Of a DNA stretch of 64,000 nt, positions 38,457 through 41,971 are shown one piece after another (within the stretch, counting starts at the first letter, position 1; each line of letters begins with the position of its first letter). Position numbers and translations under genes: made by a program. The notes beneath the pieces were generated by a model. That model was not told the origin of the DNA and ran no database searches. It saw only the letters and a list, made by a program, of their open reading frames with translations. Source of the stretch: an uncultured Clostridia bacterium (GTDB taxonomy: Bacteria > Bacillota_I > Bacilli_A > RF39 > UBA660); the NCBI GenBank assembly GCA_948433435.1, contig CAOJDX010000001.1:17564-81563 (forward strand), read 5' to 3'.

Positions 38457-39116
38457 TCACCTACTTTGTCTTTTTCTTTTTGCCCTTTTTTTTCTTTTTT
38501 TGGTGTTGGATCTCTTTTTTCTGCTATTTTTTCTTATTTCTTTTTCCTCAAGCTTATCTGAAATTAGATTATTTTTCTTTTTGAATAAGTATTTTTGAAA
38601 TTCTTGTTCTTCAATACTATCTACTGCAATATTTGTATCTGTACTGGTTAGTACACAAAATAGAAAACTTATTATTAAAACAATTGCTGTTACTAATGGA
38701 TTTTTTAATATTTTTAAAATCTTCCCCATACTGCTTATTTTAAAAATATATTTGCCAATAATTTTATCAGGAGTTATTCCTTTGTCATTGGTGTTATTAT
38801 AGTCACCTTTAGTAATTATGGTATTTTTACTGATAGAAATAATACGATGGGTTACTAAATTGTTGTCCTCGTCGTAAAAAGTAATAATATCGTTTTTCTT
38901 ATAATTTTTATCTTTTGTATTAATTATAATTAAATCGCCTACTTCTATAGTTGGTTGCATAGATCCAGATGCAACTTCTAATATAGTGTATCCGCAAACT
39001 GGTGCGATATCATTTTTCAATATTTTAAGATTTATAAAGTGATAAATGCTTATAAAAAATAGGAAAATAATACAAAATTTAATCAATATAAGAATTATCT
39101 TTTTTAATTTGGTCAT
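38457..39116 (-). CDS. sipW: signal peptidase I, archaeal/SipW type (S26B), copy 1
   Basis: 219 aa. VASGSMQPTIEVGDLIII (Ser), LVTHRII (His), ITKGDYNNTND, C-terminal TM and a Lys/Arg-rich tail. Its start overlaps the upstream stop (ATGA). Confidence 0.85.
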   Translation of the reverse strand: MTKLKKIILILIKFCIIFLFFISIYHFINLKILKNDIAPVCGYTILEVASGSMQPTIEVGDLIIINTKDKNYKKNDIITFYDEDNNLVTHRIISISKNTIITKGDYNNTNDKGITPDKIIGKYIFKISSMGKILKILKNPLVTAIVLIISFLFCVLTSTDTNIAVDSIEEQEFQKYLFKKKNNLISDKLEEKEIRKNSRKKRSNTKKRKKRAKRKRQSR

Positions 39117-41971
39117 TTGTTTTCACTCTTTTTAGTAATACATGAGTTGCTATTTTCAAAATTTAGGCCAACAAATAAGCGATACTTATCATTAATTGTA
39201 TTATCAAATCTACTAGCAGCAGCTTGATTGCCTATCATGGTATCCAGTTTATCTGAGTCTTTATCAATTTCTACCCATTTCCAGAAAAGTGAAATAGCAA
39301 TCTCTTCATTACTTTGAATGGTTATTTTATCATTGAAAGTAATAATCTTTCCTTCATAATTAGGCATAAGTGGTGAAACATCTTTATTTAGAATTTTGTA
39401 TTGATTTTCTCCACCATAATAGTATTGAGCATTATCCTTATCAGAAGGTCTATATTGAATAATATAACCCATGTTCAAGCAGCCTTTGTTGTTAATACAG
39501 ATTGTTTCTTCTTTTAATGTCATTCCTTTAATTGTTACAGGACTAGGACTTTCGTTTTTGAAATTCATAATGTAATAACCGTGTGCCCCAGGATAAATTA
39601 CTTTATCTTCTCCATGTAGTTTATAATATTCTTCATTATGGAAAAGCGGAACATCAGTTAGCCAAAGAGTTTTATTAAACAAATCTTCTGTAACAGGAAT
39701 TGAATTTTTATCATATATTGCATATAGTGTGATATCTTCCTGTAGGTTGCTAATAATTTTTTTATCTGTTCTATTATAAATAATAGGTCCATCAACTGTT
39801 TTACTATATCCAATAAATTTGTGATATTTACATTCATCTTTTGAATCAAGTTTGTAAGGTTCTTCATATTGAGATAGATCAACTGTTTCATCTTTTGAAA
39901 TTTCTTTTATATACTCACTGGTTCCAAGGTTGAATTGACCTCCATTGGCCTTTAAAGTTACAATATATCTTCTGACAATATGTAAATCAACATCAAGCTC
40001 TGTAAATATTTTGCCATAGGCACTACCTGAGATATGTAACTTAGCTTCTCCGTCTTTTATTGCTGTTACTTTGATTGGAAGGGATAATGGAGCATTTTGT
40101 TCACCAGTATACTCTAATTTTTCTATTAAATCACTATTTGTACTAATTGTAATACAGGCATTTTTATTAGAGGAGCAAATTGTGATTTTTTTATTATCAT
40201 CAGACTGTGTTATCTCTATATTTCCTCCAAATAGATCTGTTCTAATGATTACGTCGGTTTCTCCTTTTACCTTTCCGTCTTTATCTGTTGCAATAGTAAT
40301 ATCATATTCATTGTTAGTGTTTAAGTAATAATTATGTATTTTGAAATGAATAATAGTTGTTGCAGTTTTTCCCTCATATTCTATTGATAATTCTGCAGAT
40401 TTATCTTTAATATTAAAAATTTTATTACTATATGGTCTAATTACTATAACACCTTTATCAATCTTTAAAATATCGATGGCATCTTGGAAAGTATTATTTA
40501 TTTTTGCCTTTATATAGTCAGGATCATATTCTGTTGTTTCTTGACCATTTTTATAGACTTTATATAAAATAGCCTGTGGAATATCATCAGCATATAATTC
40601 TAGTTCATAGGCTGATTTTTCAAATTTTATGGTATATTCAGATTTTCTATTGATGTGTACAATGTAATCTCTTGTTGAACCATCTTCAGCTGTTACTGTA
40701 ATTACTACTGTATTGTCTCCGTAGTTTAGCTCTAAATCCTTTAGGGAAGATACTTTTTTTCCATTATAAGTAATTGTTGCTTTGTTGCTACTTGCTATTG
40801 CTGTAACAGTTATTTTATCTGTATTAGAGTTCACTTCCACACTATAAAAATTTTTATTGGGGTCAAATTTTGGAGATAAAGTTCCTGAACTTATTTGAAT
40901 ATCTTTCAAGTAATTATTATTATCTTTTTTACTTTCTTCTTTAGGATCTCTATGAATAATTACAACATAATTTCTTACTGAACCGTCTTCAGCTGTTACT
41001 GTAATTACTACTGTATTGTCTCCGTAGTTTAGCTCTAAATCCTTTAGGGAAGATACTTTTTTTCCATTATAAGTAATTGTTGCTTTTTTACTACTTGCTA
41101 TTGCTGTAATTGTAATTGTATTTGTATTCGAGGAAACATTAACTGTATATAGATTTCTATGTGGATCAAATTTTGGAGATAAAGTTCCTACACTTACCTT
41201 AATATTTTTTAAAAAATTATTACCATCTTTTTTCTTAGAGGAACTACTACGAATTACCGTTAATGTGTATAAGGTTGTGTAAGTTTTATCATTATAAGTA
41301 GTGGAAATAGTAATAGTAACTTTTCCTGTTTTAAATGCTTTAATTCTTAAATATCCCTCATAAACTTCAACTCTAGCGATAGAATCATTGCTTGATACGG
41401 CATGCACATCACTATTTAATTGAACTAATGTATAACTAACTAATTTTTCATTTGTCTTTGCTAAATCTATAATACCATTATCGTTACTTAATTTAATATA
41501 TCTATTGTAGTCAGTAATCTTGATTTTTGCAGTGGCCTTATATATTTTATTATTTGTTTTTGCTTGTAATGTGATAGTGATTTTTCCTGTTTTTTTGGGA
41601 ATGATAACTACATGACGATTTACAACATAGCATGTTGCTATAGAAGCATTACTAGTCGTACAAGTGAATTTTTTGGGTTTAATATTTTTATAAGTAAAAC
41701 CTAATTTGCTTTTTGAGTCACTTAAAGAAATTTCTAAATAATCTTTATTGAATTTTAATTCTTTATTTAAAATTATATCTAAGTCATTTGTATTTTCATT
41801 AATTTCATAATTTCCTTGGTTTCCAAAGATATTACCAATTTTACCAAATAAACCTGAAGAACAACTACAACTAGTAAGTAATAAAAGTATAATGATAATT
41901 ATAATGATGATGTAGGTGATAATTCGTTTTTCTCTATTATTTTTTTCTTCTTGCTTCTTATTATCTTTCAT
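39113..41971 (-). CDS. 952-aa multi-domain putative lipoprotein: Big_2-like x2, cadherin-like x2, Listeria-Bacteroides repeat, C-terminal TasA-like domain
   Basis: N-terminal poly-Ile/Leu TM with a lipobox-like LLTS|C. Ig-like segments at aa ~100-153 and 188-240. Two 101-aa cadherin-like beta-sandwich repeats (LK.I.(V/I)S.GTLSPKFDP....Y.V.V). YIVTLKANGG...F.GYS...LYAIY repeat. The last ~175 aa align with the 223-aa TasA-like protein (KVIYPGAHGYYIMNF vs KVVAPGTAGIYTFTL; FWKWVEID..D.LDTMIGNQAA vs GWKWAFEN..DTNLGNKAA). Confidence 0.65.
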   Translation of the reverse strand: MKDNKKQEEKNNREKRIITYIIIIIIIILLLLTSCSCSSGLFGKIGNIFGNQGNYEINENTNDLDIILNKELKFNKDYLEISLSDSKSKLGFTYKNIKPKKFTCTTSNASIATCYVVNRHVVIIPKKTGKITITLQAKTNNKIYKATAKIKITDYNRYIKLSNDNGIIDLAKTNEKLVSYTLVQLNSDVHAVSSNDSIARVEVYEGYLRIKAFKTGKVTITISTTYNDKTYTTLYTLTVIRSSSSKKKDGNNFLKNIKVSVGTLSPKFDPHRNLYTVNVSSNTNTITITAIASSKKATITYNGKKVSSLKDLELNYGDNTVVITVTAEDGSVRNYVVIIHRDPKEESKKDNNNYLKDIQISSGTLSPKFDPNKNFYSVEVNSNTDKITVTAIASSNKATITYNGKKVSSLKDLELNYGDNTVVITVTAEDGSTRDYIVHINRKSEYTIKFEKSAYELELYADDIPQAILYKVYKNGQETTEYDPDYIKAKINNTFQDAIDILKIDKGVIVIRPYSNKIFNIKDKSAELSIEYEGKTATTIIHFKIHNYYLNTNNEYDITIATDKDGKVKGETDVIIRTDLFGGNIEITQSDDNKKITICSSNKNACITISTNSDLIEKLEYTGEQNAPLSLPIKVTAIKDGEAKLHISGSAYGKIFTELDVDLHIVRRYIVTLKANGGQFNLGTSEYIKEISKDETVDLSQYEEPYKLDSKDECKYHKFIGYSKTVDGPIIYNRTDKKIISNLQEDITLYAIYDKNSIPVTEDLFNKTLWLTDVPLFHNEEYYKLHGEDKVIYPGAHGYYIMNFKNESPSPVTIKGMTLKEETICINNKGCLNMGYIIQYRPSDKDNAQYYYGGENQYKILNKDVSPLMPNYEGKIITFNDKITIQSNEEIAISLFWKWVEIDKDSDKLDTMIGNQAAASRFDNTINDKYRLFVGLNFENSNSCITKKSENK
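40643..41221 (-). repeat. tandem 303-nt in-frame duplication encoding two cadherin-like domains
   Basis: Copies at 40946-41221 and 40643-40918. The cores 40979-41086 and 40676-40783 (KATITYNGKKVSSLKDLELNYGDNTVVITVTAEDGS) are essentially identical at DNA level. Confidence 0.9.

Follow-up and report, generated by a model that had tools for sequence, protein, structure and literature searches.

How matrix fibers of the TasA/BsaA type are attached to the cell is unsettled, and the role of TapA is debated. A surface-protein gene cluster of an uncultured Clostridia bacterium (GTDB lineage Bacillota_I; Bacilli_A; RF39; UBA660) raises this question in a concrete form. We analyzed a stretch of 64,000 nucleotides (nt) of this organism (assembly GCA_948433435.1, contig CAOJDX010000001.1, positions 17,564 to 81,563), which is referred to as the window. 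Coordinates are those of the window unless a locus is named, and all features of the cluster lie on the minus strand. Next to the gene of a 223-amino-acid (aa) major subunit candidate (42065..42736), the window encodes a 952-aa protein, here called Big952 (39113..41971), that combines a membrane tether, an immunoglobulin (Ig)-like stalk, and a C-terminal subunit-like domain. A reading made from the letters of the DNA without database searches, called the sequence-only reading below, had described this open reading frame (ORF) correctly and had proposed a lipoprotein acting as anchor or tip of a fiber. We give about even odds (roughly 0.5) to the view that a SipW-dependent fiber in the style of TasA/BsaA, built by donor-strand exchange, has Big952 as its membrane-tethered terminal subunit. 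A membrane tether fused to a donor-less copy of the subunit is a testable anchor candidate and would also set the polarity of the fiber.

The C-terminal domain of Big952 resembles the neighboring subunit

Residues 766–952 of Big952 (~187 aa; 39116..39676) were delimited by hhalign, family searches, and AlphaFold 2 (AF2) modeling as a subunit-like domain without a donor-strand motif. At the level of single sequences, the likeness to the 223-aa protein is weak: BLASTP revealed 26% identity over 138 aa with an expectation (E) value of 0.018, and the overall identity between domain and subunit is remote (~17–26%). Profile–profile alignment with hhalign yielded a probability of 95% (E 3e-8) for a 6-sequence profile. 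With a 94-sequence profile, the values against the subunit family were 96% (E 3.6e-9) in local and 96.9% (E 2.3e-10) in global mode. The default local alignment spans only the W-x-W/DT-x-x-GN and last-strand block (36–46 columns), and relaxed and global alignments cover the whole domain, reproducing the pairings of LF-N-Y, PG-x-x-G, W-x-W/DT-x-x-GN, and the last strand. The hidden Markov models (HMMs) of the two families matched each other's members reciprocally in a set of 441 ORFs (E 1e-8 to 1e-4). AF2 models were obtained for residues 661–952 of Big952, with a predicted local distance difference test score (pLDDT) of 86.9 and a predicted template-modeling score of 0.76, and for the 223-aa subunit (pLDDT 78). 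Both follow one order of elements: a beta strand carrying the PG motif, two further beta strands, a variable insert, the W-x-W beta strand, a helix with DT-x-x-GN, and a last beta strand. Judged from profiles and predicted models together, the likeness between the C-terminus of Big952 and the subunit is real and not a matter of chance. The motif-by-motif correspondence noted in the sequence-only reading is thus borne out by hhalign (95–97%), the reciprocal HMM matches, and the modeled element order.

An exhaustive search with the profile of the C-terminal domain recovered 122 representative clusters at E ≤ 1e-3, 116 of them below 1e-10. In every full-length member (700–1850 aa), the domain lies within a few residues of the protein end, and no free-standing subunit was significant in this search. 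Within the subunit fold, the domain therefore forms a separate branch that occurs fused to larger proteins. It shares with the subunit the invariant F, P-G-x-x-G, W-x-W, and D-T-x-x-G positions. When 36 C-terminal segments were scanned against Pfam, no family was found for the domain, and NCBIfam holds none either. Four Cys residues (C714, C825, C831, and C944; window ~39140–39832) are invariant in 36 homologs of the region comprising the Flg_new-like and C-terminal domains, and they are not found in the mature 223-aa subunit of the window. They may pair as disulfides. In a presumed anaerobe, this would be an unusual trait of a surface protein.

The C-terminal domain lacks the putative donor strand of the subunits

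The 223-aa protein has 203 homologs, none with a Pfam domain. It consists of a signal, two N-terminal motifs, and a beta-sandwich core. Invariant in the family are T25, A27, and Y29 of SG-TYAKY, a family-specific motif that Big952 lacks, as well as D37, A39, R40, A42, and W44 of D-x-ARVAKW. Further invariant residues are F55, A80-P81-G82, G85, E97, W178, W180, D195, and Q217. Residues 22–59, including D-x-ARVAKW, are disordered in the AF2 monomer model. A BsaA-like N-E-K isopeptide lock was considered for this family and dropped, the candidate K77 being variable (K 20, N 9, D 6; n = 36).

Two further proteins of the cluster carry a SipW-type motif. The 206-aa protein p206 (37840..38460) is a full-length paralog of the subunit (hhalign 94.7% over 171 columns) with TYSKY and ARVA-x-F, the latter reading ENARVANF in the window. 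It contains conserved cysteines that are not present in the mature 223-aa subunit of the window. The 549-aa protein p549 (36169..37818) aligns with the subunit families only over its N-terminal ~25 residues, which comprise S-Y-T-K-F as a SipW-type motif and then a short strand, V/I-L-K-Y (V-L-K-Y-like). The rest of the protein is unrelated and contains no subunit core, and p549 occupies a conserved position in the cluster. Neither p206 nor p549 gave a signal in direct comparison with the C-terminal domain of Big952, and Pfam and NCBIfam contain no family for the subunit, p206, or p549.

The motif counts separate these families. ARVAxW occurs in none of 94 members of the Big952 family, in 35 of 36 subunits, in 8 of 15 p206 proteins, and in none of 10 p549 proteins. 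The corresponding numbers for TYxKY are 1–2 of 94, 36 of 36, 15 of 15, and 6 of 10. The C-terminal domain of Big952 starts just past the position of the conserved strand of the subunit. Having no donor motif, it should be able to accept a strand only. On the simplest reading of the motif distribution, Big952 would be acceptor-only, the 223- and 206-aa proteins would be both donor and acceptor, and p549 would be donor-only. This makes p549 a candidate for a donor-only, TapA-like partner.

The N-terminus of Big952 provides a conserved membrane tether

Big952 begins with MKDNKKQEEKNNREKR, followed by IITYIIIIIIIILLLLTS|C35. Residues 1–35 (41867..41971) thus consist of a basic N-region, with Lys, Arg, and Glu prevailing in the first 16 residues, an 18-residue Ile/Leu segment, and the lipobox LLTS|C35, which was assigned by pattern match. 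The PROSITE-type (PS51257-type) pattern used was {DERK}(6)-[LIVMFWSTAG](2)-[LIVMFYSTAGCQ]-[AGS]-C, and IIIILLLLTS-C35 fits it. The sequence also conforms to [LVI][ASTVI][GAS]C preceded by a positively charged n-region and a hydrophobic h-region. The Ser at position −1 fails the strict Gram-positive G+LPP pattern. As a control, the window and the related loci were searched for further lipoproteins, and none was found. The sequence-only reading had described the N-terminus in these terms, including the absence of TYxKY, and the description holds.

Among the full-length family representatives, 81 of 94 have a strict lipobox, the usual sequence being L-(I/L)-T-S-C-(S-C)-T-S-x-F-F-G-K-I-G. Some clades have no lipobox Cys (e.g., ITSG, ITTG, or none) and retain the basic stretch, the hydrophobic segment, and F-G-(K/R)-I-G. 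Examples are the protein P0156 of locus L017 (ITSGLTTNFFGRIG), a widespread protein found in L019 and L020 (ITTGLTTNIFGRIG), and a 460-aa protein of L015 and L018. The juxtamembrane motif (S)C-S/T-S-x-F-F-G-K-I-G-x-x-F (residues 36–52; 41816..41866) is conserved throughout the family, Cys-less members included, and an N-terminal hydrophobic tether was found in nearly all full-length representatives inspected. As predicted from these sequences, the membrane tether is a conserved feature of the family. Lipidation of Big952 is plausible and not universal among its relatives. Of the proposed lipoprotein, the hydrophobic tether and the lipobox pattern therefore stand, and the absence of the Cys from whole clades speaks against lipid attachment as a general trait.

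The stalk varies in repeat number and length

The segment between the tether and the C-terminal domain is composed of Ig-like and other beta domains. Residues ~60–245 (41237..41794) form two Ig-like (Big_2-like) segments. Big952 itself gave no Pfam match to Big_2 at E ≤ 0.1; PF02368 was detected at E 1e-3 to 4e-5 in four of eight homologs scanned, at the second segment. The two cadherin-like beta-sandwich domains named in the sequence-only reading (residues ~247–445; 40637..41233) were confirmed as two copies of PF12733 in Big952, above the gathering threshold (E 6.7e-28; 97.4 bits vs. a cut-off of 24.2). The pair corresponds to a tandem direct repeat of 294 nt with 84% identity. As the homologs scanned contain one to six PF12733 stretches, stalk length seems to evolve by gain and loss of repeats.

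The following beta-rich region (residues ~446–664; 39980..40636) differs in length among homologs and found no match in Pfam, NCBIfam, or the PDB. Residues ~665–760 (39692..39979) were modeled by AF2 with pLDDT values of 80–97 as a beta domain similar to the Listeria–Bacteroides repeat (Flg_new-like). Here again, the repeat proposed from the letters alone had no Pfam match in Big952, and PF09479 (Flg_new) matched 4 of 36 homologs (best E 8e-5). hhalign placed LYAIY at the end of this domain opposite TYAKY of the subunit; we judged this pairing to be coincidental, LYA-x-W/Y being the normal end of a Listeria–Bacteroides repeat.

The N-terminal ~250 aa appear to be conserved among homologs, and repeat number and overall length differ. 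The minimal relative is the 460-aa protein mentioned above, from a higher-G+C Bacillota metagenome-assembled genome (MAG; L015, 9020–10402; L018, 5020–6402). It consists of a Cys-less transmembrane segment, one beta domain, a Pro/Glu/Asp linker of ~100 aa (PEEPDPTDP-type), and the C-terminal subunit-like domain. Its gene adjoins sipW2 and lies downstream of two subunit genes.

Big952 has a fixed place in a cluster with two SipW-type peptidases

The genes of the cluster are co-directional and tightly packed, in a genome with a G+C content of 27%. The first, sipW1 (42886..43551), encodes a SipW-type signal peptidase that matches TIGR02228 above cut-off (E 2.9e-28) and the NCBIfam SipW family at E 1e-30, with 106.7 bits below the family cut-off of 190 bits. 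It is preceded by a candidate operon promoter (43593..43622), TTGACA-18-TATAAT, which agrees with the sigma-70 consensus in 12 of 12 positions and was identified by consensus match only. The second peptidase gene, sipW2 (38457..39116), directly follows that of Big952; its product matches TIGR02228 above cut-off (E 4.2e-25) and the SipW equivalog below cut-off (E 7e-23). The cluster thus has a trait of TasA/BsaA-type systems, a dedicated SipW-type (archaeal/endoplasmic reticulum-type) signal peptidase encoded beside the subunit. The stop codon of the Big952 gene and the start codon of sipW2 overlap in ATGA, and the stop of sipW2 overlaps or abuts the p206 gene. Further downstream of p549 are a LepB-type signal peptidase I (35491..36018; PF10502, E 4e-45), which is a conserved cluster member, and a 548-aa repeat protein, p548 (33393..35039).

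To trace the cluster elsewhere, we used 15 loci from a genome collection, comprising MAGs of uncultured Bacilli, "Tenericutes," Muribaculaceae-labeled organisms, or Bacillota, many from gut samples. Every collection locus with enough flanking DNA showed the order SipW1, subunit, Big952 homolog, SipW2, p206. Where the DNA extends further, p549 (10 loci), the LepB-type peptidase (5 loci), and p548 (3 loci) follow. Overall, more than 20 loci in MAGs of gut Bacilli keep the cluster of SipW1, subunit, Big952 homolog, SipW2, second subunit, and p549, and Big952 orthologs of 800–1000 aa occupy the equivalent position in at least 13 loci. Distant members, such as a protein of 1845 aa (L016) and a Cys-less one (L017), have SipW2 and p206 downstream or a subunit gene upstream, and the adjacency to sipW2 is kept even there. 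A search starting from three subunit homologs with 44–47% identity recovered the subunit together with a cadherin-like protein of 950–1100 aa bearing the C-terminal domain; these loci also contain an S24/S26 peptidase, a gene for a protein of ~200 aa, and one for a protein of 530–700 aa. A metagenome scan added one distant locus. Homologs outside a SipW/subunit context, named in the sequence-only reading as a refutation of its proposal, were looked for, and none occurred among the loci with enough flanking DNA.

Several observations concern the cluster itself. It combines three signal peptidases, two SipW-type paralogs and one of the LepB type, in one surface-protein cluster, and both SipW-type paralogs have very basic C-terminal tails. 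p548 carries a signal peptide of the ordinary kind, a region rich in Asn and Ser, and three internal repeats of ~65 aa (…PGWTLS-D…IIEDLAGNTK…); in three related loci, it likewise follows the LepB-type peptidase. Two stem-loops (41990–42060) lie within the 93 nt that separate the subunit gene from that of Big952, one reading GGAAGTTAA-TTT-AACTTCC and the other with a 13-bp stem (CCAAATAAACCTA/TAGGTTTATTTGG), neither of them with a U-tract. They could set the ratio of subunit to anchor expression. GerA genes lie beside related loci, and a FemAB-like and a SpoIVB-like ORF near the cluster were recognized by eye; these neighbors suggest a walled Firmicute.

Any relation to TasA is remote

The sequence-only reading had called the C-terminal domain TasA-like, a label that found no support in comparisons with Pfam, NCBIfam, and TasA profiles. 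All genuine TasA homologs carry PF12389 (Peptidase_M73), and neither Big952 nor the 223-aa protein matched this family; it was also absent from 36 subunit-family members at E ≤ 1 and from 36 C-terminal segments. The hhalign comparison used an alignment of Bacillus TasA homologs that started from a TasA query whose match to real TasA was 99%. Against this alignment, the subunit family (1.4%), the C-terminal domain (0.05%), and p206 (0.06%) were not significant, the matches being short and confined to the PG strand and the final ATQ strand. TIGR04088, the model of SipW-dependent-type signal peptides, scored the 223-aa protein below threshold (9.9 bits vs. a cut-off of 19; E 0.84). Big952 has no match to TIGR04087 (YqxM_for_SipW, TapA) and lacks both TYxKY and ARVAxW. 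The NCBIfam models of TasA, TapA, and BsaA type assigned neither the subunit nor Big952, and PDB searches with single sequences and profiles retrieved nothing.

The only direct link is a weak structural one: the top Foldseek match of the subunit model in the PDB was the TasA fiber 8aur_A (E 0.012; template-modeling score 0.32). For BsaA and AbpA, too, it took iterative or structural methods to make the connection with TasA (PMC11580942, PMC9245690). Given this precedent for remote links at the level of structure, membership of the subunit in the TasA superfamily is plausible on the basis of gene context and the match to 8aur.

A model of fiber anchoring and its alternatives

In the assembly that we propose, SipW1 and SipW2 would cleave the three TYxKY proteins, and the 223- and 206-aa subunits would polymerize by inserting the N-terminal strand of one subunit into the beta-sandwich of the next. 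The chain end with a free donor strand could then be captured by the C-terminal domain of Big952, whose N-terminus would be fixed in the membrane and whose Ig/cadherin stalk would span the envelope. p549 may give the first strand or cap the opposite end, as a nucleator or tip of the kind proposed for TapA (PMC9674648, PMC10151520). A domain that accepts but cannot give a strand should occupy one fiber end, and Big952 would anchor this end to the cell because its other terminus is membrane-fixed and its stalk, or the Pro/Glu/Asp linker in the minimal homolog, can span the wall. The minimal homolog in L015, the conserved membrane-proximal part, and the variable repeat number and overall length favor an anchor over an adhesin. 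An acceptor role is also in line with the monomer models, in which the strand LWLTDV of Big952 is ordered, at the place where TasA has its self-complementing strand (PMC9674648), and residues 22–59 of the subunit are disordered. The complete three-part design is more tentative. It would comprise a donor-only starter or tip (p549), two polymerizing subunits, and an acceptor-only, membrane-anchored domain capturing the last free strand, a mirror image of TapA in families outside Pfam and NCBIfam. If true, this design would give a concrete answer to how TasA/BsaA-like fibers can be held in the membrane without a sortase.

Several points weigh against Big952 as a terminal subunit. Strand insertion into residues 766–952 is derived from sequence and monomer models. 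The subunit family fails the PF12389, NCBIfam, and TasA profile tests, so that donor-strand exchange in the family itself is an extrapolation. When the model of residues 661–952 was compared with the PDB by Foldseek, no TasA-like structure appeared at E < 1e-3, only generic jelly-roll, beta-sandwich, and capsid matches. Lipidation is predicted from a pattern whose Cys is absent from whole clades. Finally, the strand LWLTDV (residues 766–771) is ordered in the AF2 monomer model, at the place of the self-complementing strand of TasA, which could mean that the groove is permanently filled in cis. Big952 would then be a stand-alone membrane-anchored surface protein with a diverged, permanently self-complemented domain that stays out of the fiber and may bind the matrix laterally or some other ligand. 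The four invariant Cys residues, not present in the mature 223-aa subunit, suggest such a locked fold, and the remote identity to the subunit points the same way. However, the TasA monomer, too, complements itself until strands are exchanged (PMC9674648), and the domain has kept the best-conserved core motifs of the subunit (F, PG-x-x-G, W-x-W, DT-x-x-GN). In every locus examined, moreover, the gene strictly accompanies those of the subunits and SipW in a set order, and we regard a protein detached from the fiber as unlikely.

If the N-terminal segment were a removed signal, or the protein were otherwise released, Big952 could sit at the cell-distal end of the fiber and use its Ig-like and cadherin-like domains for adhesion. 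A terminal position is the only one open to its subunit-like domain, adhesins often contain cadherin-like and Big_2 domains, and functional domains followed by a donor-less subunit-like domain are the arrangement of FimH. Yet the far end of Big952 is a conserved hydrophobic anchor with a juxtamembrane motif rather than a variable binding domain, and the transmembrane segment of the Cys-less clades looks uncleavable. The N-terminal ~250 aa seem conserved while repeat number and overall length vary, and the minimal homolog has the Pro/Glu/Asp linker in place of adhesin domains; a tip adhesin is, on this evidence, quite improbable. The translational coupling to sipW2 and the conserved juxtamembrane motif, which could contact the peptidase, would also suit an assembly platform or chaperone whose tethered domain briefly binds new subunit N-termini beside SipW2 and passes them on without entering the fiber. 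This we consider very unlikely, since a 700-aa stalk would keep the domain at a great distance from the peptidase in the membrane, and there is no evidence for turnover.

Other features of the window

Outside the cluster, GC skew changes sign at ~29000–33500, as does gene orientation, with genes mostly on the plus strand to the left and mostly on the minus strand to the right, converging on this region. A XerD-like recombinase gene is located at 30895–31794. The region is probably the replication terminus. At 9484–12648, a PilB/GspE-like ATPase was recognized by eye only, as were two ORFs whose N-termini are of the prepilin type (…GFAMVETLIA… and …KGMTLIELLISF…). These ORFs are of interest because, in Clostridium perfringens, secretion of BsaC, and partly also of BsaA oligomers, needs type IV pilus proteins (PMC11580942).

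Comparison with known systems

In the tapA-sipW-tasA system of Bacillus subtilis, TapA (YqxM) donates its N-terminal strand to TasA (PMC9674648, PMC10151520). Residues 28–38 of TasA are the donor strand, and residues 48–61 complement the monomer until they are displaced (PMC9674648). The tapA and sipW genes are translationally coupled by a stop/start overlap (PMC10151520). Big952 resembles TapA as a minor, membrane- or cell-associated accessory protein of a SipW-dependent fiber, coupled to sipW2 by the ATGA overlap, and both have been proposed to fix one fiber end. In contrast, TapA is a SipW substrate and strand donor with a body that is not TasA-like, whereas Big952 has no SipW-type motif or donor strand and ends in a subunit-like acceptor. 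p549 is therefore the closer TapA analog, and the role of Big952 would be the inverse of that of TapA rather than its equivalent. Of the anchor or TapA-like function envisaged in the sequence-only reading, the anchor part fits, and the comparison with TapA has the wrong polarity, the domain being devoid of the donor motif (0 of 94).

The BsaA/BsaB/SipW system of C. perfringens (PMC11580942, PMC7395162) shares with the cluster a SipW-adjacent subunit remotely related to TasA, several subunit paralogs per operon, and predicted donor-strand exchange. There, an unknown factor anchors the BsaA oligomers in the membrane (PMC11580942), and a large protein that ends in a subunit domain has not been described. 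The N-E-K isopeptide triad of BsaA is not evident in the cluster of the window, the Lys being variable.

Archaeal Tafi loci encode the major and minor pilins TafA and TafE, the tip TafC, the membrane anchor TafF, and the peptidase TafD (PMC12337348, PMC11821415). In bacterial AbpX loci, LPXTG and S-layer homology (SLH) anchors are predicted to join the fibril (bioRxiv 10.64898/2026.01.04.697558). These loci resemble the present cluster in having a dedicated signal peptidase, pilin paralogs, a tip, and a membrane or wall anchor that is predicted to take part in strand complementation. They differ in protein families and anchoring chemistry; two SipW paralogs and a gut Bacilli lineage characterize the cluster described here, and Big952 joins an N-terminal transmembrane segment with lipobox, a long Ig-like stalk, and a C-terminal subunit domain in one polypeptide. 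In chaperone-usher pili, FimH consists of a functional N-terminal part and a C-terminal pilin domain without donor strand and is hence terminal. Mfa2 and FimB of type V pili are subunit homologs that are lipid-anchored and fix the pilus base (PMC5789003). Both cases involve unrelated folds and machineries (usher or gingipain processing, Gram-negative outer membranes), and the analogy is one of logic only.

The logic of Big952 thus has precedents in FimH, Mfa2/FimB, TafF/TafC, and the AbpX-linked LPXTG/SLH anchors, which qualifies the earlier impression of an undescribed architecture; the fusion itself does appear to be new. The cluster of eight genes for a putative surface fiber adds two sizeable families without annotation, the subunit (~200 homologs) and the C-terminal domain (122 representative clusters), and such fibers could shape aggregation and colonization in the gut. 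Compared with the known systems, what appears to be new is the fusion of tether, stalk, and donor-less subunit, its fixed place in a cluster with two SipW-type peptidases, and these two families.

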